A DNA stretch of 51,974 nucleotides, taken from Acidimicrobiia bacterium. Lineage in GTDB: Bacteria > Actinomycetota > Acidimicrobiia > IMCC26256 > PALSA-555. Positions 7,795 through 34,462 of the stretch are shown here, one piece after another. The stretch is from positions 1 to 51,974 of the forward strand of contig JBBDWT010000015.1 in the NCBI GenBank assembly GCA_040902705.1. The letters are read 5' to 3'. The notes beneath the pieces are model-generated. The model did not search any database. It was not told the DNA's origin and worked only from the letters and a program-made list of their open reading frames with translations. Made by a program: the position numbers and the translations under genes. The number at the start of each line of letters is the position of its first letter. Positions within the stretch are counted from its first letter, which is position 1.

Positions 7795-8478
7795 TCAGTC
7801 GTGCGTGGGATCAGTGCGCGCGAGTGACAACCGCCGGTTCGCCGCGTCGAGCACGGCGCGGACGATCGCGTCGTCCGGACTGTGGTGCACGATGGCCGAG
7901 CCGGCGAGGTGGCGCTCGAGCGGCATCTCCACGGAGACGAGCGTCACGATCGCGACGTCTTGTGGACCGACGTGTGCGATCTCCGCTCCGACGACGTCCA
8001 GGGACCTCGCGGCGTCGTGGAGCTGCCGCAGCGCGTCAAGCGTCGCGGTGGCGACCAGGCGCGGCCGGACCATGGTCGCCGCGGTTCCCTCCGCGTACCC
8101 GGTCGCTTGCGAAGCGCCCTCGAGCGTGACCCTGATCGACGTGCGGAGCTCGACCGTGCTCGCTTGGATGCCCAGGACGCGCACCCGAACCGCCGGAAGG
8201 GCTGCCGGCGCGCTCGTCGACGAGTCACCGTTCGGGGTCAGCTGGACGACGGAGACGATCCGGCGATCGATCTCGAGACCGAACGACGCAAGGGCGACGG
8301 ACTGGACATCTCGCACGACTTGCTTCGCGTGCTTGCCGGTGTGGGCGAGGACGTGGATCTCGAGTGGGCGGCCGATGTCGTCCGCCACGATCCGGACCGC
8401 AGCGACATCAGGAAGGCGGTGCAGTTCCGCTTCGACCGCGTCCACGTCGAGCTCGGCCGTCTGCTGTTCGTCGGACAT
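7795..8478 (-). CDS. hypothetical protein (227 aa), first gene of the glycosyltransferase operon
   Basis: Clean ORF with an acidic N-terminus. It lies 20 nt upstream of the GT gene. The translation is coding-like and non-repetitive (LPDVAAVRIVADDIGRPLEIHVLAHTGKHAKQVV...). I recognise no family. Confidence 0.6.
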   Translation of the reverse strand: MSDEQQTAELDVDAVEAELHRLPDVAAVRIVADDIGRPLEIHVLAHTGKHAKQVVRDVQSVALASFGLEIDRRIVSVVQLTPNGDSSTSAPAALPAVRVRVLGIQASTVELRTSIRVTLEGASQATGYAEGTAATMVRPRLVATATLDALRQLHDAARSLDVVGAEIAHVGPQDVAIVTLVSVEMPLERHLAGSAIVHHSPDDAIVRAVLDAANRRLSLARTDPTHD

Positions 8479-25788: not shown

Positions 25789-28071
25789 ATGGCCGAGTCG
25801 AAGATCGGACCGACGACTCCAGTCGAGCTCGTCGAATCCGTCTACTCCCGATACCCCGAGCGGGTGGACATCGGTCGACGCCGGCTCGGTCGTCCGATGA
25901 CGTTCGCGGAGAAGGTGCTGATCGCGCACGCCGACGACCCGGAGACGGTCGGGCTCGAACGCGCCGTCGACTACTCCGACTACCGCCCAGATCGCGTCGC
26001 GATGCAGGACGCCACCGCGCAGATGGCGCTGCTGCAGTTCATGACGGCCGATCTCCCGACCGTCGCCGTCCCGGCGACCGTGCACTGCGACCACCTGATC
26101 CAGGCCCATGTGGGCGCTGACGCCGACATGGCGACGGCCCTCGACGTGAACTCGGAGGTGTACGAGTTCCTCCGGACGGTCTCGGCGAAGTACGGCGTCG
26201 GATTCTGGAAGCCGGGGTCAGGCATCATCCACCAGGTCGTGCTCGAGCAGTACGCCTTCCCCGGCGGGATGATGATCGGCACCGACAGCCACACGCCGAA
26301 CGCCGGTGGCCTCGGGATGATCGCGATCGGTGTCGGGGGTGCCGACGCCGTCGACGTGCTCGCCGGGTGGCCGTTCAACACGCGCGTCCCCCGGCTCATC
26401 GGTGTGCGCCTCACCGGACGCCTCTCGGGATGGGCGTCGCCCAAGGACGTGATCCTCCAGGTCGCCGGCATCCTCACCGTGAAGGGTGGGACGGGAGCGA
26501 TCGTCGAGTACTTCGGTCCCGGCGCGGAGTCGATCTCGGCAACAGGCAAGGCCACGATCTGCAACATGGGTGCGGAGATCGGGGCCACGTGCTCGCTGTT
26601 CCCCTACGACGTGCGCTCTGCCCTCTACCTCAAGGCGACCGAGCGCTCCGAGCTCGCCGGGCTCGCCGACGAGTACGCCGAGCACCTGCGCGCCGACCCG
26701 GAGATCGACAACGATCCCGAGCGGTACTACGACCGGGTCATCGAGATCGATCTCGACGACCTCGAGCCCCACGTCGTGGGCCCGCACACTCCCGACCTCG
26801 ATCGTCCGATCAGCGAGCTGGCCCGGGTCGCGGCCTCAGAGAACTACCCGCTCGACATCTCCTACGCACTCGTCGGTTCGTGCACGAACTCGTCGTACGA
26901 GGACATCGGTCGCGCGGCCCACGTGGCCCGCCAGGCGAAGACCGCGGGGCTCAGGGTGCGCACACCGCTGCTCATCACCCCCGGCTCGGAGCAGGTGCGA
27001 GCGACGATCGAACGTGATGGCCTCCTCGAGGACCTCGAGGCGATCGGCGCGAAGGTGCTCGCCAACGCGTGCGGTCCCTGCATCGGCCAGTGGAAGCGCG
27101 ACGACATCGAGACCGGTGAGAAGAACACGATCGTCTCGTCGTTCAACCGCAACTTCCCCGCCCGCAACGACGGCAACACCGCCACGCTCTCGTTCATCGT
27201 GTCGCCGGAGACGGTCATCGCGATGGCGTTGAGCGGTCGCCTCGACCACGACTTCGTGCACGAACCGCTGCGCAGCAACGACGGCACCGAGGTCCGGCTG
27301 GAGCCGCCCGTCGCCGATGAGCTCCCCGACCACGGCTTCGATCCGGGTGAGTCGGGCTTCGTGCCCCCGGCCGAGGACGGCACCAGCGTCGAGGTCGTCG
27401 TGAAGCCCGACTCCGACCGGCTCGAGCTGCTCGACCCGTTCCCGGCGTGGGACGGCCAGGACGTGGTGGGCCTGCGTGTCCTGCTCAAGGCGGCCGGCAA
27501 GTGCACGACCGACCACATCTCGCCCGCCGGCAAGTGGCTCAAGTACCGCGGGCACCTCACCAACATCTCCAAGAACCTGTTCACCGGCGCGAACAACGCG
27601 TTCGCCCTCGACGAGCCCGGCCTCGGCGTCGACACCCGGGACGGCAGCGTCGTCCCGCTCCCGGATCTGGCGAAGGCGTACAAGGACGCCGGCATCTCGT
27701 GGATCGCGGTCGGAGACGAGAACTACGGCGAAGGCTCGTCGCGCGAGCACGCCGCGATGGAGCCCCGGTACATGGCCGGGCGCGCCGTGCTCGTGCGGTC
27801 GTTCGCGCGCATCCACGAGGCGAACCTCAAGAAGCAGGGAGTCCTCGCGCTCACGTTCAAGAACCCCCTCGACTACGAGCGCATCCTCGTCGACGACACC
27901 ATCGACATCGTCGGGCTCGATGGGCTCGCGCCCGGGAAGCCGGTGCGGGTGCTGCTCCAGCACGCGAACGGCAAGATGGACGAGATCGAGACGACCCACA
28001 CCATGTCGGAGGAGCACATCGGATGGTTCCGAGCAGGATCCGCACTCAACGTGCTGCGCGCACAGTCATGA
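25789..28071 (+). CDS. acn: aconitate hydratase, mitochondrial-type (about 760 aa)
   Basis: ATG at 25789 within ORF 25642..28071. DRVAMQDATAQMALLQF...HCDHLI...GVGFWKPGSGIIHQ...GTDSHTPNAGGLG...ILTVKGGTGAIVEYFGPG...ICNMGAEIGAT closely follows the eukaryotic ACO2-type sequence. It does not resemble the ~900-aa AcnA/IRP type. Confidence 0.92.
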   Translation: MAESKIGPTTPVELVESVYSRYPERVDIGRRRLGRPMTFAEKVLIAHADDPETVGLERAVDYSDYRPDRVAMQDATAQMALLQFMTADLPTVAVPATVHCDHLIQAHVGADADMATALDVNSEVYEFLRTVSAKYGVGFWKPGSGIIHQVVLEQYAFPGGMMIGTDSHTPNAGGLGMIAIGVGGADAVDVLAGWPFNTRVPRLIGVRLTGRLSGWASPKDVILQVAGILTVKGGTGAIVEYFGPGAESISATGKATICNMGAEIGATCSLFPYDVRSALYLKATERSELAGLADEYAEHLRADPEIDNDPERYYDRVIEIDLDDLEPHVVGPHTPDLDRPISELARVAASENYPLDISYALVGSCTNSSYEDIGRAAHVARQAKTAGLRVRTPLLITPGSEQVRATIERDGLLEDLEAIGAKVLANACGPCIGQWKRDDIETGEKNTIVSSFNRNFPARNDGNTATLSFIVSPETVIAMALSGRLDHDFVHEPLRSNDGTEVRLEPPVADELPDHGFDPGESGFVPPAEDGTSVEVVVKPDSDRLELLDPFPAWDGQDVVGLRVLLKAAGKCTTDHISPAGKWLKYRGHLTNISKNLFTGANNAFALDEPGLGVDTRDGSVVPLPDLAKAYKDAGISWIAVGDENYGEGSSREHAAMEPRYMAGRAVLVRSFARIHEANLKKQGVLALTFKNPLDYERILVDDTIDIVGLDGLAPGKPVRVLLQHANGKMDEIETTHTMSEEHIGWFRAGSALNVLRAQS

Positions 28072-28514
28072 GGCGCCGCGCCCCACGGCTGGTCGGAGCG
28101 ATGCTCGTGCTCGCCGTCGGGGTCGCCGCGTGCGGCGGCGGTGACTCCGACTCGGCCGACGACACGACCACGACCAGGGGGACCGACGCGTCGACGTCCA
28201 CGACCGAGGACACCACGTCGGTCACCGTCGGCATCATCTGCACGACTGCCGAGGACGCCGCGATGACGCTCGTCGACGCGTGGGGCGCCGACGATCGCGC
28301 CGCCGGCCGCCGATGCGCGAGCGAAGCGGTCGTCGACCAGATGTTCGAGGTCAGCGGTGCCGGCAACACGTGGACGGACGAGGGCTGTGACCGGACCGAT
28401 CCCGGCGTGCCCGTGTGCGCGTACCGCTACGAAGGCGGCGCCGCGCTCTTGACGGTGGAAGGCTCGGAGGCTTCGGGCTGGAAGGTCACGCGCCTCGAGT
28501 ACCTGGCGGACTGA
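28068..28514 (+). CDS. secreted lipoprotein (148 aa), translationally coupled to the aconitase gene
   Basis: ATGA overlap with the acn stop. The signal peptide has a lipobox (MLVLAVGVAACGG), followed by a Thr/Asp-rich linker and a small Cys-containing domain. Confidence 0.7.
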   Translation: MRRRAPRLVGAMLVLAVGVAACGGGDSDSADDTTTTRGTDASTSTTEDTTSVTVGIICTTAEDAAMTLVDAWGADDRAAGRRCASEAVVDQMFEVSGAGNTWTDEGCDRTDPGVPVCAYRYEGGAALLTVEGSEASGWKVTRLEYLAD

Positions 28515-29865
28515 GGCTCACCGGCTCGAGCTGCGCCTCGGTGGGCTCGGCGCAGCAGAACCAGGTCTCCGTGAGGTGCGGTCGCGCGTCGCCCCCGTGG
28601 GCCGACCGGCCGGACGGGGCCAGGCCACAGGTCGCCCGAACCGCCTCGTAGGTGCGCGCCGCGGGAATCCCGTCGGCGACGTGCGACTCGACGAGCGCCG
28701 CGAGCTCGAGTTGGAGCTCGTCCATCGTCGGCTCGGCACTCCGCCACTCGTAGCAGCCGCGATCCGCGTCGTACTCGCCGAGGTGCGGCGCGAGGTCGGG
28801 GGTGTCGAGCAGGAGTGAACCCGGAGGCACCAGCAGCCGGATCGTGTACTGCACCGGATCGACGTTGGGGACGAGATCGTGCACCGCGACGAAGTCGAGG
28901 ATCCCCTGGATCTCGTCGAGCGTCGTCCACGGTGTGAACGGCATCCACGACGGACGGATCTCGATGCCGAGGCTGCGCAGCAGCTCGACGGCGCGACCCA
29001 TGTCGGCCGCAGTGTGATCCTTCGCCAGGCGCGTCAGCGTTGCTTCGTCCACGGTCTCGAACGCGGAGACGACGAACAGGCAGCCGGCATCGGCGAGCTC
29101 GGACCACACCTCGGCGTGGCGAAGGATGTGCTCCACCTTGACCGTGCAGTCGAACGTCAGGTCGGGGAAGCGCTCGTGGACTGCACGCACGATGCGAAGC
29201 GCATGGTGGACGCCGTTGAAGAAATCGGGGTCGCCGAAGCTGACGTGCTGAGCGCCGGCGGCGACCTGCTGGGTGACGTCCGCGAGCACGCTCTCGGCGT
29301 CGACGATCCGGGTCCGGCCGTCGTAGACGACGGGGACCGGGCAGTGCCGGCATCGGTGGGCGCAGCCGTGGCTCGCCTCGGTGTGGGCGACCACGCGCCG
29401 CTCCCCGCCGACCGCCAGCCGGACGTATCGGTCGAGCGGGGGGAGGAGGTCGCGGGCGGGCACGGCCGCGCCGGTCCCCGCGTCGCCGTGGCCCAGGTGG
29501 ATGACGATGCCGTCGTCCACGCGCCCTTCCACCCAGTCGACGACCGCCTCGTCGGTCTCACCGGCGAGCACCCGGTTCGCCACGTCCGACAGCACGGGTG
29601 CATAGAGGCCAAAGGCCGCGATCGGCAGGTCGGGTCGCTCGGCGTGTGCCACGTCGATGGTCTGGCGCGCGATTCGCCCCGCGGTGTGCATGGGCACCGA
29701 GATCGCCATGCGCTCGGCCCAGCGGGCGAGCTCGCGATCCCACGGGTCGAGCGAGAGGTCGAGGCAGCGCACGTCGTGACCGCGCTCGCGAAGTCGACCA
29801 GCCACCGCGGCGACGTGCAGCGGTTGGTAGCCGAGCTCGTAGCACGCGACCAGCGCAACCTTCAC
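28486..29865 (-). CDS. B12-binding-like/radical SAM protein with a C-terminal CCAEP motif (CUAEP/CCAEP-tail radical SAM family)
   Basis: 459 aa with a GTG start at 29865. The radical SAM cluster motif is GCAHRCRHC (CxxxCxxC). The near-C-terminal sequence is WFCCAEPTEAQ; the CCAEP codons (TGC TGC GCC GAG CCC) lie at 28543-28557. Confidence 0.85.
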   Translation of the reverse strand: MKVALVACYELGYQPLHVAAVAGRLRERGHDVRCLDLSLDPWDRELARWAERMAISVPMHTAGRIARQTIDVAHAERPDLPIAAFGLYAPVLSDVANRVLAGETDEAVVDWVEGRVDDGIVIHLGHGDAGTGAAVPARDLLPPLDRYVRLAVGGERRVVAHTEASHGCAHRCRHCPVPVVYDGRTRIVDAESVLADVTQQVAAGAQHVSFGDPDFFNGVHHALRIVRAVHERFPDLTFDCTVKVEHILRHAEVWSELADAGCLFVVSAFETVDEATLTRLAKDHTAADMGRAVELLRSLGIEIRPSWMPFTPWTTLDEIQGILDFVAVHDLVPNVDPVQYTIRLLVPPGSLLLDTPDLAPHLGEYDADRGCYEWRSAEPTMDELQLELAALVESHVADGIPAARTYEAVRATCGLAPSGRSAHGGDARPHLTETWFCCAEPTEAQLEPVSLSPPGTRGA

Positions 29866-29875
29866 GGGACCCAGG

Positions 29876-31120
29876 CTAGGGGCGTTCCGTCGTCACCCCC
29901 GCCGGCGACGGTTCCGTCGCGGGGTCCAGCACGACCTCGAGGTGCTCGTGTGCGGTGCGCAGGGCGTGCTCGACCGCTGCAGGCGTGTCGGCGCGCGCGA
30001 AGAGGAAGCCGAGGTAGCGGTCGCCTTCGGGGAGGGGCACCACGGCGCGGCCCGGGGGGATCGTGATCTCGAGCCCGACGATCCCAGCGCAGGCCCGCGC
30101 CCGGTCCTGGCCGCGCACCTCCGCCAGCGTCCCTCCCTGCACGATCGGGAGCATCATCACGCCCGACGCGGCCTCCTCGCGCACCATGCCGACCAGCGAC
30201 ATCCCCAACGCGTGGCGAAGGATCACCGCCTCGAGGCTGATGCCCGCGCCGAACCGCAGGGCGCGCGCGCACAGACCGCCGATCGAGCGCGCGGCGATCT
30301 CGAGGACGTGCACGCGCTCGCCGTCGACCCGCAACTCCGCGTGGATCGGTCCCTCGGTGAGCCCGAGCGCCGCGGCTGCGTCGCTCGTGACCTTCGTGAC
30401 GGACGCGAGCGTGTCGGGTGCCAGAGAGCTCGGCGTGACGTAGATGGTCTCCTCGAAGAAGGGCCCGTCGCCCGCGTCGGGCTTGTCGAACACCGCGAGC
30501 ACCTCGAGGTCACTGCCGCGGAGGAGACCCTCGACGGCGACCTCGCGCCCGCGCACGAGCGCTTCCACCAGGATCCGGCCTCCGCCGGCGATCGCCGAAG
30601 CCCGGTGCGCCGCCGCGGTGGCGCCGGCCGCGTCGTCGGCCCGGATCACGCCCTGGCTCCCCGAGAGACCGACCGGCTTCACCACGACCGGGAACCCGAG
30701 CCGCTCCGCCGCGCGTCCCGCCTCCTCCGGGATGTCGATCGCGGCGAAGCTCGGCTGCGGGATCTCGGCCTCGGCCAGGGCACGACGCATCGCCTCCTTG
30801 TCGCGGGTGCGGGCGACGGCTTCTGGCGGGTTGTGGGCCAGCCCGAGCCGCTCGGCTGCCCGTGCCGCGGCCACGACGCCCCGGTCGTCGAGCGCGACGA
30901 TCGCATCGACGCCGCGGCGGTCGTCGAGCGCGACGATCGCGGCCGCGGCCGCGTCGGCATCGTCGAGGGGGATGGCGATCGCCCGCGTGGCCGTCGGATC
31001 GGTGACGGCGGGCGCCTGCTCCGAGGCGACGACCAGGTCGATGCCCAACGCCCGCGCCGCCGCGACGAAGTCGGGGGCTCGGTACGTGGAGGTGGGCACG
31101 AGCAGGACGACCGTTGGCAC
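29876..31120 (-). CDS. ATP-grasp domain protein (amino-acid/carboxylate ligase-like)
   Basis: ORF 29876..31183. The ORF-track start is a TTG at 31183 and would overlap the divergent gene. I prefer the GTG at 31120 (VPTVVLLVPTSTY...). ATP-grasp core: DKEAMRRALAEAEIPQP...GFPVVVKPVGLSGSQGV...EEAL..GREVAVEG...IHAELRV...VLEIAAR. Confidence 0.8.
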   Translation of the reverse strand: MPTVVLLVPTSTYRAPDFVAAARALGIDLVVASEQAPAVTDPTATRAIAIPLDDADAAAAAIVALDDRRGVDAIVALDDRGVVAAARAAERLGLAHNPPEAVARTRDKEAMRRALAEAEIPQPSFAAIDIPEEAGRAAERLGFPVVVKPVGLSGSQGVIRADDAAGATAAAHRASAIAGGGRILVEALVRGREVAVEGLLRGSDLEVLAVFDKPDAGDGPFFEETIYVTPSSLAPDTLASVTKVTSDAAAALGLTEGPIHAELRVDGERVHVLEIAARSIGGLCARALRFGAGISLEAVILRHALGMSLVGMVREEAASGVMMLPIVQGGTLAEVRGQDRARACAGIVGLEITIPPGRAVVPLPEGDRYLGFLFARADTPAAVEHALRTAHEHLEVVLDPATEPSPAGVTTERP

Positions 31121-31136
31121 GGGCCTATCATGACCA

Positions 31137-31766
31137 GTGATGAGCGACCCGGTCCTCACCGTCACCGACGCCGCTCGGACCAAGATCGTCGAGGTCCGAG
31201 CCAGCGAAGCCCAGCCCGACTCCCTCGCGCTCTTCGTCGAGGTCTCGGGGCAGCAAGACGGTGCCTATACGTACACGATGGAGCTCCGGCCTCTCGCCGA
31301 GGCTGGTGATTCCGACGTGGTCCAGAACCACGACGACCTGCCCGTCGTCGTCGAGGCCGAGAGCGCGGATGCCCTGCGGGGGGCGACGCTCGACTTCGCC
31401 GCCGCGGGCATGGTCATGCAGAACCCGAACCTTCCGCCGGCACCGTCGGTGGAGCCGCCTTGGACGGTCGACGCCGACACGGAGCTCAGCAGCGATGTGG
31501 CGCGCACGGTGATCGCCGTCCTCGAGGAGCAGATCAACCCGCAGATCGCAGCTCACGGCGGGCGCGCCGATCTCATCGCCGTCGAGGAGACCGTCGCCTA
31601 TCTGGTCCTGTCCGGAGGGTGCCAGGGATGTGGCATGGCGGCGGTCACGCTGTCGCAGGGGATCGAGGTCGCGATCCTCGACGCGATCCCCGAGATCGAG
31701 AAGGTCGTCGACGTCACCGACCACGCCTCCGGCGTGAACCCGTACTTCGAGGCCGCGAAGAAGTAG
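31137..31766 (+). CDS. Fe-S cluster biogenesis protein, degenerate HesB/IscA-like N-domain plus Nfu/NifU C-domain (NfuA-like)
   Basis: GTG at 31137 or ATG at 31140. The C-terminal Nfu motif is INPQIAAHGGRADLI...LSGGCQGCGMA (CxxC). The N-terminal A-type-carrier-like fold lacks the Cys ligands. Confidence 0.85.
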   Translation: MMSDPVLTVTDAARTKIVEVRASEAQPDSLALFVEVSGQQDGAYTYTMELRPLAEAGDSDVVQNHDDLPVVVEAESADALRGATLDFAAAGMVMQNPNLPPAPSVEPPWTVDADTELSSDVARTVIAVLEEQINPQIAAHGGRADLIAVEETVAYLVLSGGCQGCGMAAVTLSQGIEVAILDAIPEIEKVVDVTDHASGVNPYFEAAKK

Positions 31767-31805: not shown

Positions 31806-32531
31806 CTACCCGAAGCGCCGAGCGTCCTCGAGCGCGTAGCTCGCAACTGCATCGTCGGCGACCGTCGTGGTCGCGAGCGCGTCGAGCACCTCGCCGAGGC
31901 GTGACCCCGGGATCGCGCAGGTCATCTCGCGCGCGGGCATCCCGGTGCGCACCCGGCTGAGCGCGCAGCCGACGCTCGCCGCGACCTCACCGCGCTCCTT
32001 GGCGATCGCCACGATGTGGCACTGAGGCTTGCCTTCGATCCGCATGTCGGGCACCGCGTCGTGCAGCACCATCATCTGCTTGCCGGTGACGCGGATCAGC
32101 ACGACATCGGGGTCGACGGGCGACGCGGCGAGAGGTCCGTAGACGATCGTGTCGGGCTTCTCGGTCACCACCGGGATCTGCGGAACGACGTCCATCGTGA
32201 CCCAGCCCGTCTCGAGGAGCGCGGCGACGTCGGAGTTGCCCGCGACCTCGTCGAGCGTCTTGAAACCGTGCGTGAGGCTGCCGACCGAGCAGTTGCCGTG
32301 GTCGGCGGCGACGGTCGAGAACGTGCCGTCGACGGCCTTGATCCAGAACACGCAGCCTGCGGGGACGCGTCCGGTCCGACCGTCGGGCATGGCGTCGGGC
32401 ATCGGCGCGTCGAACGGGGCGACGCCGTCCGGAGCCGCGTCGGCAAACGTGATCGCGATGGGGGGGACCGCGAGCTCGAGCGCGTTCGTGAGGCGTCCCG
32501 CGAGGTTCGACCAGTCTGCAGTTGTCGTCAT
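31806..32531 (-). CDS. DUF169 domain-containing protein
   Basis: 241 aa. The PAGCVFW...HGNCSVG...KPQCH...VGCALSR pattern matches what I know of DUF169. Function is unknown. Confidence 0.7.
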   Translation of the reverse strand: MTTTADWSNLAGRLTNALELAVPPIAITFADAAPDGVAPFDAPMPDAMPDGRTGRVPAGCVFWIKAVDGTFSTVAADHGNCSVGSLTHGFKTLDEVAGNSDVAALLETGWVTMDVVPQIPVVTEKPDTIVYGPLAASPVDPDVVLIRVTGKQMMVLHDAVPDMRIEGKPQCHIVAIAKERGEVAASVGCALSRVRTGMPAREMTCAIPGSRLGEVLDALATTTVADDAVASYALEDARRFG

Positions 32532-32554
32532 GCGACGAACCTACTCCTCGCCGT

Positions 32555-33700
32555 TCATCGCAGCGCGCGGAGCTTGGTCAGGACCTCGCCGAACGCTGCG
32601 CTGAACGCGGCGACGTCGTCGTCGGTGGTGTTCCATCCGACGCTGACTCGCAGTGACCTGTCGGCATCGACACCCATGGCGGCGAGCACCGGCGAAGGCT
32701 CGAGGGCCTCGCTCGAGCACGACGAGCCCGAGTGCGCCGCGATGCCCCGCTGGTCGAGCCCGAGGAGGATCGGCTCGGCCTCGACCCCTTCGATGCCGAC
32801 ACAGACGAGATGGGGGACGCAGGCGTCCGGGTCGCCGTACCGCTCCACGCCGTCGACGGCGAGTGCCGCCTCGGCGAGGCTCGCGGTCTGCGCGCCGGCC
32901 GCTGCTGCCTCGCGTGCGAGCCGGTCGTCGTCGGTGAGCTCGGCGGCGGCAGCCCCGAAGCCGACGATGGCGGCGACGTCCTCGATTCCCCCCCGTCGGG
33001 CTCGTTCCTGCATCCCACCGACGATGAAGGGAGGGATCCGCAGGCCCCGCCGGACGAGCAGCGCGGCAGCTCCCTTGGGTCCCCCCAGCTTGTGGGCCGT
33101 CACCGAGCAGAGATCGGCGGCGAGTGCCGGAAAGTCGATGGGGACGTGCCCGGCGGCCGCGCATGCGTCCACGTGCACGAGCGCGCCCCGCTCGCGCGCC
33201 GCCGCCGCGAGCTCGGGGAGCTCCGTCTGGAGGGTGCCGATCTCGTGGTTCGCGAGCTGGATGCTGACGAGGGCCGTCTCGGGCCTGATGGCGGCGAGAA
33301 CGTCGTCAGTGGCGATGTGGCCGGCGCGGTCGACGCCGACGGTCGTGATGTCGGCCGGTGCGCGACGGCAGGCGTCGAGCACGGCCGAGTGCTCGATCGC
33401 GCTCGTGACGACGTGGACGCGCTCCCGGTCGAGCTTCTCGACGCCGCGACCGACCGCGCCCCACACGGCAGCGTTGACGCTCTCGGTGCCGGTCGCCGTG
33501 AAGACGATCTCGCGCGGCCGCGCACCGAAGAGCCTTGCGACCTGCTCGCGCGCGTGCTCGATCGCAACCCGCGTGGTGCGCCCTTCGCTGTGGACACGCC
33601 CGGGATCACCGGGGTGATCGCGCAGGAACGGCAACATCGCATCGAGCGACGCGTCGCGCAGGGGCGTCGACGATGCATGGTCGAGATAGGTCCGCGGCAC
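32555..33700 (-). CDS. cysteine desulfurase (class V aminotransferase, NifS/IscS-like)
   Basis: YLDHASSTP...FTATGTESVN...SVTAHKLGGPKG (PLP-Lys)...HSGSSCSS (catalytic Cys loop). Size is 381 aa. Confidence 0.92.
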   Translation of the reverse strand: MPRTYLDHASSTPLRDASLDAMLPFLRDHPGDPGRVHSEGRTTRVAIEHAREQVARLFGARPREIVFTATGTESVNAAVWGAVGRGVEKLDRERVHVVTSAIEHSAVLDACRRAPADITTVGVDRAGHIATDDVLAAIRPETALVSIQLANHEIGTLQTELPELAAAARERGALVHVDACAAAGHVPIDFPALAADLCSVTAHKLGGPKGAAALLVRRGLRIPPFIVGGMQERARRGGIEDVAAIVGFGAAAAELTDDDRLAREAAAAGAQTASLAEAALAVDGVERYGDPDACVPHLVCVGIEGVEAEPILLGLDQRGIAAHSGSSCSSEALEPSPVLAAMGVDADRSLRVSVGWNTTDDDVAAFSAAFGEVLTKLRALR

Positions 33701-33718
33701 GGAAGCCCCGATGCTGCG

Positions 33719-34462
33719 TCAGACGCGGGCGACGCAGTGGTCCGCGCCGTCGGGTCGACTGACGTCGAAGCGCGGTGTGGTCTCGCCGTAGAGGCCGGAG
33801 AGCATCCCGCGGATCATGCCGCGGTCGAGGGCGCAGACGACATGGGGGTACGCCTGCGCAGTGTCACCGAACGGGCAGCACTCCGAGACGATGGTGAGCT
33901 CCGCGCCGTCGGACTCGGCGTGCGCCGCGAACCCGTGCGCGGTGAGGGCATCGGCGACGGCGGCGAGCGCCGTCCGCACGGAGCGGTGACCGGTGCCGGG
34001 GTCCATCTTCTCCGCAAGATCGCGCCCGTACTCGTAGCCGACGTCGTCGGCGATCACCTCCGCTTGCTCCGGTCCGAGCGCGTCGAGCGCGCGGGCGAGC
34101 AATCGGGCCAGCACATCGTCGTGGCGCATCGGCAGCGCGAGCGCGTGATCGAGCTCGCTCGCGCGGTACCGCTTCGACGGTCGCCCCGCAGGGCGGGCGC
34201 TGGTGTCGTCGTCGGGCCGGGAGATCGCGACCGTGAGGTACCCACCGCTGGTGAGCTTCTCGAGGTGGTGGCGGGCGACGTTCGGGTGGAGGTCGAACTT
34301 CGCGGCCACCGCGGATGCCGTGACGTCCTCGGGTGCGTCCCGCACGAACAGGTAGATCTCGCGCCGAGTCGGGTCGCCGAACGCGTTGGTGACCGCGGAG
34401 ACGGCGGCGTTGAACTCGTCGGCGGAGAGCGGCCGATCCGGAGGAGAGTCGACTGACGCCAC
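33719..34462 (-). CDS. ArsR-type winged-helix regulator with a Cys-containing C-terminal domain (SufR-like)
   Basis: The N-terminal wHTH reads FGDPTRREIYLFV...ASAVAAKFDLHPNVARHHLEKLTSGGYL. The C-terminal domain has CCPFG, VVCALD and HCV cysteines. It lies upstream of the cysteine desulfurase and divergent from mrp. Confidence 0.7.
   Translation of the reverse strand: MASVDSPPDRPLSADEFNAAVSAVTNAFGDPTRREIYLFVRDAPEDVTASAVAAKFDLHPNVARHHLEKLTSGGYLTVAISRPDDDTSARPAGRPSKRYRASELDHALALPMRHDDVLARLLARALDALGPEQAEVIADDVGYEYGRDLAEKMDPGTGHRSVRTALAAVADALTAHGFAAHAESDGAELTIVSECCPFGDTAQAYPHVVCALDRGMIRGMLSGLYGETTPRFDVSRPDGADHCVARV

Follow-up and report, generated by a model that had tools for sequence, protein, structure and literature searches.

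What reaction is catalyzed by a radical S-adenosylmethionine (SAM) protein with a vicinal cysteine pair near its C-terminus, and what does the amino acid ligase encoded immediately upstream contribute? The question is raised by a contig from a metagenome-assembled genome (MAG) of an Acidimicrobiia bacterium in GenBank (assembly GCA_040902705.1, contig JBBDWT010000015.1, positions 1 to 51,974; this whole stretch of 51,974 nucleotides, with a G+C content of 70%, is here called the window). On its minus strand, a gene for an ATP-grasp protein of 414 amino acids (29876..31120, GTG start at 31120) is followed by one for a radical SAM protein of 459 amino acids (28486..29865, GTG start at 29865), the operon junction being a 10-nt spacer (29866..29875) between the ligase stop codon (TAG, 29878-29876) and the radical SAM start. 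These open reading frames (ORFs), their coordinates, and the GTG start of the ligase had been described in a sequence-only reading of the window, and are borne out by the sequence and by the N-termini of 11 orthologues. GTG 31120 is the most likely start of the ligase; the longer ORF, which extends to 31183 from a TTG codon, would overlap the neighboring nfu gene.

As judged from sequence comparisons, the two enzymes probably belong to a conserved small-molecule biosynthetic module, rather than to a system for peptides synthesized ribosomally and modified post-translationally (RiPPs); the ligase and radical SAM genes are predicted to be co-transcribed, and a gene for an NfuA-like iron-sulfur (Fe-S) carrier is a regular third partner. 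By analogy with the arsenic enzyme ArsL, the radical SAM protein may transfer a 3-amino-3-carboxypropyl (ACP) moiety from SAM to a thiophilic atom held on its Cys-Cys or Cys-selenocysteine (Sec) tail, with subsequent ligation of the product into a dipeptide, a reading that we hold to be possible, though short of probable. The family name and the annotation of the window protein were already known, and the ligase/Nfu partnership appears to be undescribed. The family is listed as uncharacterized in a 2022 preprint that remarks on the rare CU motif. Literature searches, with most subscription journals outside their coverage, returned no paper on the function of the family, its link to ArsL, or the ligase/Nfu partnership, and none that dealt with homologues of ArsL or with radical SAM, ATP-grasp, and ACP in combination.

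Family membership and fold of the radical SAM protein

A profile search establishes the family assignment that the sequence-only reading had made from the tail. The protein matches NF040546 (CUAEP/CCAEP-tail radical SAM (seleno)protein) at 500.5 bits (E = 4.3e-150) over model positions 1-467 of 468, which exceeds the curated cut-off of 500 bits by a narrow margin, and an identical protein in GenBank is already annotated as CUAEP/CCAEP-tail radical SAM. The family comprises at least 7996 clusters at 90% identity (those scoring E ≤ 1e-10 among 8000 candidate clusters). The Pfam Radical_SAM domain (PF04055) is found at 50.2 bits, relative to a threshold of 29.5. The B12-binding domain (PF02310) scores 24.6 bits, below the Pfam cut-off of 32.1, and the sequence gives no indication of a dependence on cobalamin. 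An AlphaFold2 model computed from 90 sequences (predicted local distance difference test [pLDDT] score of 92.9) has as its closest solved folds AprD4, OxsB, TsrM, MgmA, CysS, MiaB, and TokK; the predicted architecture is a Rossmann-like N-domain, a radical SAM core, and a C-terminal tail, and resembles class-B radical SAM enzymes. The B12-binding-like N-domain proposed earlier thus survives as a predicted fold, and not as a Pfam match.

Residue conservation was counted among 110 diverse full-length family members. The only universal cysteines are C168, C172, and C175, which make up the CxxxCxxC motif (GCAHRCRHC, residues 167-175; 29341..29364, minus strand; invariant in 110/110) and are the predicted ligands of a [4Fe-4S] cluster, together with C437 and position 438 in the tail. 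An auxiliary Fe-S cluster on C240, C262, and the tail was considered and rejected: both residues seemed invariant among 20 to 90 close homologues, and cysteine proved to be present at C240 in 42% and at C262 in 76% of the 110 members; a Bacillus ArsL-type protein has Phe and Val at these positions. With no other cysteines universal, the family appears to combine a single cluster site with a vicinal Cys-Cys/Cys-Sec pair and to lack any place for an auxiliary cluster. The same frequencies make a sacrificial sulfur-donor cluster of the LipA type unlikely.

The tail motif and its selenocysteine forms

The tail motif of the window protein reads WFCCAEPT (residues 435-442; 28540..28563, minus strand) and lies 24 residues from the end (F436 of 459), not 26 as first counted. 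Both tail cysteines are encoded by TGC (C437 at 28557-28555, C438 at 28554-28552), and this is the Cys form, as had been read. When one genome of each GTDB species was scanned, at least 596 stretches matched, from which 80 loci were kept (loci are given here with the prefix L). The motif WFC[C/U][A/S]EP is kept in 78 of the 80, conservation in orthologues being the test on which the sequence-only reading had staked its proposal beforehand. Its second position is TGC or TGT in 50 of the 78 loci and TGA in the other 28, and downstream of TGA the reading frame goes on as AEPTxGQ(F/L)G. Among the 110 family members, C437 is present in 107, and position 438 is occupied by Cys in 59 and by Sec in 47. 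E433, W435, and P441 are invariant in the tail region, for which the model has pLDDT values of 76 to 84.

The Sec loci have in common a 7-bp hairpin with an AGUUY loop located ∼15 nt past the TGA (∼15 to 35 nt), and its stems show compensatory changes (GAGGGCC/GGCCCTC, GAGGACC/GGTCCTC, and ACTCACC/GGTGAGT); loci with this structure include L001, L004, L007, L013, L016, L018, L019, and L032. The hairpin looks like a bacterial selenocysteine insertion sequence (SECIS) element. With TGA falling exactly at the second tail position and the frame and hairpin conserved beyond it, the Sec forms are, by all sequence indications, real, in agreement with the earlier remark that the second Cys can be Sec. 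Minimum free energies 3' of the codon did not differ significantly between Sec and Cys loci (p = 0.35), the hairpin being evident from inspection and covariation. We note that Sec forms read TEGQFG where Cys forms read TxAQL, perhaps because the hairpin overlaps the EGQFGP codons.

A Sec form is also present in a cultured organism, Thermomicrobium roseum DSM 5159, where it appears to be annotated as a truncated protein. The RefSeq coding sequence of TRD_RS12835 (megaplasmid NC_011961.1; L161:8935-10440) ends at ESWFC before a TGA, and the frame beyond it reads AEPLEDPSGP, as expected of a CUAEP form. Neighbors of TRD_RS12835 encode a class I/II aminotransferase and a major facilitator superfamily transporter; an orthologue of the ATP-grasp ligase was not found on the megaplasmid.

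Relationship to ArsL

The second-best model for the radical SAM protein is NF040542 (ArsL, RCCLKC-tail), which matches residues 4-391 at 241.6 bits (cut-off 450). An RCCLKC-tail (ArsL-type) protein encoded on a Bacillus cereus plasmid is 33% identical over 419 residues (E = 3e-71, in an alignment that stops short of the tails), and the active-site strands FxDxDFFN, T(F/Y)DxTx(K/R)V(E/D)H, and PWTT are common to the two proteins. The window protein is not ArsL, as it falls below the ArsL cut-off and has no RCCLKC tail; from these comparisons, ArsL appears to be its closest characterized relative, in a sister family.

ArsL converts SAM to methylthioadenosine and an ACP radical or Fe-bound ACP, and passes ACP on to As(III) held by three tail cysteines in the biosynthesis of arsinothricin; no auxiliary cluster is needed, and removal of the tail abolishes product formation, with SAM cleavage retained (10.1101/2024.02.01.577332; 10.64898/2026.04.29.721666). 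The enzyme is active in an assay listing no cobalamin (10.1101/2024.02.01.577332). The window protein and ArsL are alike in their Rossmann-like N-domain, CxxxCxxC core, and Cys-rich motif near the C-terminus, and in having one cluster and no auxiliary-cluster cysteines. They differ in that RCCLKC provides three cysteines, whereas WFC(C/U)AEPT of the CUAEP/CCAEP family provides two thiols or selenols, and in that the CUAEP/CCAEP family is found outside arsenic gene contexts, has Nfu and DUF169 proteins as partners, and includes many members that use Sec.

ArsL-type genes are located in arsenic islands on Bacillus cereus and Priestia megaterium plasmids (L162:1139-2967 and L163:3178-4999), together with genes for a major intrinsic protein channel, a CobW-type GTPase, ArsN1, ArsI, an ArsR/ars operon, and a conserved member of the carboxymuconolactone decarboxylase family. 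On these plasmids, a gene for an ATP-grasp protein with ATP-grasp_4 and LAL_C2 domains lies ∼3 kb from the ArsL-type gene, which hints at a peptide version of an arsinothricin-like compound in Bacillaceae.

The ATP-grasp ligase

The partner protein has three Pfam domains that all exceed their cut-offs (ATP-grasp_4, 91 bits; LAL_C2, 54 bits; ATPgrasp_N, 47 bits). Among solved structures, it is closest to BL00235, an L-amino acid ligase (3vot; E = 7e-32 over residues 34-394); next come BacD, another ligase of the same type, and RizA. The assignment to the amino-acid-ligase type made earlier, with the gene 10 nt upstream of the radical SAM gene, is therefore established, and the protein is predicted from its sequence to use free amino acids. 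Known L-amino acid ligases (BL00235, BacD/YwfE, RizA, and LdmS) have the same three domains, the match to BL00235 extending over the full length, and condense two free amino acids by way of an acyl-phosphate intermediate. Among its products, BL00235 makes Met-Gly and Met-Met, and thus accepts methionine, a 2-amino-4-X-butanoate.

The window ligase differs from these enzymes in belonging to a distinct and strongly conserved subfamily that has an invariant IGGLC loop and, as partners, a radical SAM enzyme and an Fe-S carrier. Orthologues are 41 to 64% identical across Acidimicrobiia, Thermoleophilia, Chloroflexota, KSB1, and Rokubacteriota, with the invariant motifs FDKPDPLxGPxFEETxYVTPS and ARSIGGLC; none of the sources consulted for names gives the subfamily a specific one. 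In a HMMER alignment to BacD, Trp332 and Met334 correspond to the invariant Gly282 and Cys284 of the ligase; we take these two BacD residues to line the pocket for the N-terminal substrate.

Linkage of the ligase, radical SAM, and NfuA-like genes

Linkage was counted in 51 radical-SAM-anchored loci with at least 3 kb on each side and in 22 ligase-anchored metagenome loci with full flanks. In 32/51 of the former, a ligase gene is no more than 3 kb from the radical SAM gene, and in 14/22 of the latter a radical SAM gene is found at no greater distance from the ligase gene, so that the adjacency seen in the window is conserved in other genomes, a point on which the earlier proposal also depended. 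Measured from ligase stop to radical SAM start, the gap has a median length of 28.5 nt in 56 co-directional pairs elsewhere; it does not exceed 25 nt in 27 of them, and 13 pairs overlap. The arrangement is found in Acidimicrobiia, Thermoleophilia, Chloroflexota, Rokubacteriota, and KSB1, in varied orders and orientations. A RiPP or precursor peptide system was considered and rejected: there is no room for a precursor gene, the ligase gene being flanked by spacers of 10 nt and 19 nt and the radical SAM gene overlapping a convergent gene at its 3' end, in keeping with the earlier observation that no precursor-peptide ORF is evident. Pfam searches of the radical SAM protein and the ligase found neither a RiPP recognition element nor a SPASM domain.

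A two-gene operon, as initially described, is too narrow a view of this conserved pair. The gene divergent from the ligase gene across the 19-nt spacer (31140..31766, plus strand; Pfam NifU and Fe-S_biosyn) encodes an NfuA-like Fe-S carrier with a Cys-free A-type domain and a NifU domain with CxxC. Its full-length match to the NfuA models (TIGR03341/NF008392) scores 106 bits, under the cut-off of 269, and it is thus NfuA-like rather than an equivalog. An NfuA-like gene is found within 3 kb of the radical SAM gene in 34/51 loci and of the ligase gene in 17/22, and is the third conserved partner, linked as tightly as the ligase. The fourth, occasional member is a DUF169 gene (31806..32531, minus strand, in the window; Pfam DUF169), which is within 3 kb in 13/51 radical-SAM-anchored and 4/22 ligase-anchored loci, and in operon position in L107, L116, L138, L153, and L158.

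The module occurs in at least seven gene orders in several phyla. The common one has nfu divergent from ligase-radical SAM. In 12 loci (L080, L102, L104, L111, L121, L125, L126, L133, L136, L142, L147, and L160), including a Rokubacteriota MAG, the order on one strand is radical SAM-nfu-ligase with a short Nfu of 92 amino acids, and a small gene for a CDGSH-type Fe-S protein is always directly upstream on the other strand. The remaining orders are DUF169-ligase-radical SAM-nfu (L107), ligase-nfu-radical SAM (L135), nfu-radical SAM-ligase (L117), nfu-DUF169-ligase (L116 and L158), and nfu beside the radical SAM gene without the ligase (L015, L031, and L072). Outside the four-gene module, the 126 flanking genes are heterogeneous: 13 are an alpha/beta hydrolase gene of one clade, 7 encode ATP-binding cassette (ABC) ATPases, and the rest are scattered.

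Several lineages have arrangements of their own. In a second Acidimicrobiia clade (L044, L052, L054-L056, L058-L060, L065, L067, and L068), neither ligase nor nfu is near the radical SAM gene, which is followed, directly or 1 to 3 kb downstream, by genes for an ABC ATPase and one or two exporter-like ABC-2 permeases; in a subset (L052, L054-L056, L059, L065, L067, and L068) a divergent alpha/beta hydrolase gene precedes it. Four Chloroflexota loci (L009, L026, L028, and L118) have a one-strand operon of ligase-radical SAM-LipB-LipA-AceE (pyruvate dehydrogenase E1)-E2, and in a separate Acidimicrobiia clade the radical SAM gene adjoins that for E1 (AceE). The LipB-LipA-E1-E2 context may tie the module to the metabolism of lipoyl groups or 2-oxoacid dehydrogenases, in which Nfu is known to assist LipA. 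Three other Chloroflexota loci (L025, L036, and L040) have in common a 320-amino-acid gene on the opposite strand, ∼100 to 200 nt downstream of the radical SAM gene, which is assigned by cluster and length to a protein with a formylglycine-generating enzyme (FGE)-sulfatase/EgtB-like domain. Enzymes with this fold form C-S and C-Se bonds during the biosynthesis of ergothioneine, ovothiol, and selenoneine.

The DUF169 protein is more conserved than either enzyme, with 72 to 90% identity over the top 120 clusters, and its invariant cysteines include C60, C81, C171, and C189. As a functional clue, it was a dead end: it has no sequence match in the PDB, its AlphaFold2 model (pLDDT 82.8) has no structural neighbor (best E = 0.14), and in the literature we found DUF169 mentioned in gene lists only. 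An apparent cysteine desulfurase-DUF169 fusion (P0246; L164, ENA contig_5636) was rejected as an assembly frameshift artifact, since the contig has many broken genes, with Mrp in three pieces and a truncated ligase.

Genomic surroundings

The Fe-S-rich neighborhood noted earlier is present, with genes in the window for an aconitase, the NfuA-like protein, a NifS-like cysteine desulfurase, a weak match to a SufR-like regulator, and Mrp/ApbC. From 31806 to 34462 on the minus strand, genes for the SufR-like helix-turn-helix regulator (a weak assignment, with a Cys-rich C-terminus), the NifS/IscS-type desulfurase, and the DUF169 protein are co-directional and tightly spaced, and convergent on the nfu gene; this arrangement is common only to the close relatives L022, L029, L034, and L081. 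The gene that overlaps the 3' end of the radical SAM gene, convergently and by 29 nt, is a small ORF (28071-28514, plus strand) with a signal peptide and a lipobox (LAVGVAAC); it matches nothing in Pfam or NCBIfam, and none of the 80 genome loci has a counterpart. Third-position G+C is 0.89 to 0.92 for the radical SAM and ligase genes, the same as in other real genes of the window. Overall G+C is 0.64 to 0.66 between positions 8001 and 14000 of the window, compared with ∼0.70 in the rest, and an Rfam search of the window found no riboswitch or other RNA.

A proposed reaction for the module

Sequence comparisons show to which families the proteins belong, that the motif and its Sec forms are conserved, that the genes are linked, and what type of ligase is present; where SAM is cleaved, which acceptor is used, in what order the steps run, and what Nfu does are parts of the scheme that we infer. 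A single [4Fe-4S] cluster would be bound by the CxxxCxxC motif, and loaded or repaired by the NfuA-like neighbor. SAM would be cut at its C-gamma-S bond, as in ArsL, yielding methylthioadenosine and ACP as a radical or an iron-bound species, and the vicinal Cys-Cys/Cys-Sec tail would swing into the active site bearing a thiophilic acceptor atom; candidates are the sulfur or selenium of a persulfide or perselenide, or a soft metalloid. ACP would be joined to this acceptor, the second tail residue would resolve the adduct, and the released 2-amino-4-X-butanoate, a methionine- or glutamate-like amino acid, would be condensed by the ligase with a second amino acid to form a dipeptide, with hydrolysis of ATP. 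Arsenic as X is unlikely from the gene context. The sulfur or selenium of a persulfide or perselenide would be an attractive candidate on chemical grounds, if a conjectural one, and would suit the desulfurase encoded nearby. A redox-active tail and a small peptide or amide-linked product, both suggested in the sequence-only reading, are plausible.

Besides the sister relationship to ArsL, several observations favor ACP transfer followed by ligation. The only universal cysteines outside the cluster motif are the tail pair, in the same layout as in ArsL; the Bacillus and Priestia plasmids provide an independent parallel, with an ArsL-type gene near that for a ligase of the same type; the linkage of ligase and radical SAM genes, with short or overlapping junctions, is kept across phyla; and BL00235 accepts an amino acid of the kind that the radical SAM enzyme would release. 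The invariant Gly282 and Cys284 of the ligase, in place of Trp332 and Met334 of BacD, are counted on the same side. Other points weigh against it. An identity of 33% to ArsL is no guarantee of the same SAM cleavage, and there is no assay for any family member; ArsL uses three tail cysteines, relative to two in the CUAEP/CCAEP family; and the Bacillus ATP-grasp protein is 24% identical to the window ligase, so that the plasmid parallel is one of analogy, not orthology. The 126 flanking genes include no arsenic (ars), selenium, or methyltransferase genes, and the acceptor is a guess. About one third of the loci of either gene are without the partner nearby, and 5/22 ligase loci have Nfu without a radical SAM gene in the vicinity; linkage to Nfu might also mark a function in Fe-S metabolism instead of mere maturation of the enzyme.

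If the ArsL analogy holds, the pathway would be reminiscent of diphthamide biosynthesis, in which Dph2 performs an Fe-S-assisted transfer of ACP from SAM and an ATP-dependent amide formation follows. Dph2 differs in having another fold, outside PF04055, and its acceptor is a protein histidine; to our knowledge, Dph6, the amidating enzyme of the diphthamide pathway, is not an ATP-grasp protein.

Alternative explanations

The strongest competing explanation is canonical chemistry, in which a 5'-deoxyadenosyl radical would abstract hydrogen from an amino acid, or from the ligase's dipeptide, leading to epimerization, reduction, or rearrangement. The tail would then serve as a hydrogen-atom donor and two-electron redox center and, like that of thioredoxin reductase, would close to an eight-membered ring (disulfide or selenylsulfide). 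This accords with the replacement of Cys by Sec in 43% of members, a pattern typical of redox or radical-quenching residues and not of pure metal ligands, with the position of the tail in a conserved, structured motif (the invariant E433, W435, and P441, at pLDDT 76-84), and with the ligase gene being the first in the operon. Moreover, AprD4, OxsB, MgmA, CysS, and TokK, among the closest solved folds, all make the 5'-deoxyadenosyl radical. However, the fold ranking is uninformative on the choice between ArsL and 5'-deoxyadenosyl chemistry because the PDB library contained no ArsL structure, and the closest characterized relative in sequence is ArsL, which is not a 5'-deoxyadenosyl enzyme. We also know of no radical SAM epimerase or reductase that acts on free amino acids, and on these grounds consider canonical chemistry rather doubtful, though a serious contender.

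In a second alternative, the two enzymes would act with the NfuA-like and DUF169 proteins, and in places with a NifS-like desulfurase, CDGSH, and Mrp, in the maintenance of Fe-S or lipoyl cofactors. They would make or repair something that cluster trafficking requires, for instance a thiol or selenol peptide ligand, or would support sacrificial-cluster enzymes such as lipoyl synthase. The linkage of nfu is at least as tight as that between the two enzymes, and in some gene orders nfu is inside the operon; the 12 radical SAM-nfu-ligase loci have a CDGSH gene upstream, 5 of the 22 ligase loci combine ligase and nfu with no radical SAM gene nearby, and one Chloroflexota lineage has the ligase-radical SAM-LipB-LipA-AceE-E2 operon. 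Genes for SufR-like, NifS-like, DUF169, NfuA-like, and Mrp proteins and for aconitase are all in the window. There is also a resemblance to NfuA and the sacrificial-cluster radical SAM enzymes LipA and MiaB, in that a carrier of the NfuA type, with a degenerate A-type domain and a NifU CxxC, is linked to a radical SAM protein, but a conserved cysteine triad that could bind an auxiliary cluster is absent from the CUAEP/CCAEP family. The lipoyl link is restricted to a single lineage (4 loci), the aconitase, desulfurase, and Mrp neighbors are limited to close relatives of the window, and a radical SAM enzyme in need of a cluster donor accounts for nfu more simply. We know of no role in Fe-S biogenesis for any ATP-grasp or ArsL-like enzyme, and regard a maintenance function as unlikely.

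Two further proposals keep ACP transfer and specify its acceptor. In one, the module would be a second system for organification of arsenic or antimony, whose tail binds As(III) or Sb(III) and whose hydroxyarsinothricin-like amino acid the ligase makes into a dipeptide antibiotic of the 'Trojan-horse' kind. In its favor are the position of ArsL as nearest relative; the vicinal cysteine pair, a classic feature of As(III) sites that is also present in the ArsL tail; the co-occurrence, in Bacillus arsenic islands, of an ArsL-type gene and one for an ATP-grasp protein of the same ligase type; and, in one clade, an ABC-2 exporter encoded directly downstream. Nonetheless, ArsM, Acr3, ArsC, and ArsN are absent among the 126 flanking genes and beside the module in the window, the gene lies among housekeeping genes in many lineages, the two universal tail thiols compare with three in ArsL, and the protein scores below the ArsL cut-off and lacks RCCLKC, all of which make a metalloid role improbable in our view. 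In the other, the family would be a second and far more widespread type of non-canonical, ArsL-like enzyme: ACP would be transferred to a chalcogen (persulfide or perselenide sulfur or selenium) supplied to the tail through the NifS-like, DUF169, and Nfu proteins, and the resulting (seleno)homocysteine-type amino acid would be ligated into a dipeptide thiol or selenol working with NfuA in Fe-S metabolism; so specific a scheme is likewise a long shot. Finally, that the adjacency is merely inherited gene order between functionally unrelated enzymes, as the third or so of loci without a partner and the origin of most loci in related Terrabacteria lineages might suggest, is already disfavored, and to our minds highly improbable, as the genes stay together through at least seven orders and orientations across phyla, with 13/56 junctions overlapping.

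Implications

NF040546 is a large family in several phyla with few cultured members, and more than 40% of its proteins are selenoproteins. The relationship to ArsL is the only experimental handle on its chemistry, and T. roseum DSM 5159 is a cultured carrier of the Sec form. Should transfer to a chalcogen apply, it would represent a new C-S or C-Se bond-forming reaction and a new low-molecular-weight thiol pathway in Acidimicrobiia, Thermoleophilia, Chloroflexota, and related phyla. More generally, if the ArsL-like reading is true, the ligase partner would point to a dipeptide metabolite that is not yet known. ArsL is now the only radical SAM enzyme of canonical fold known to make an ACP unit, and if a sister family were to transfer ACP to another acceptor, non-canonical SAM cleavage would be common, rather than a curiosity of arsenic biochemistry.

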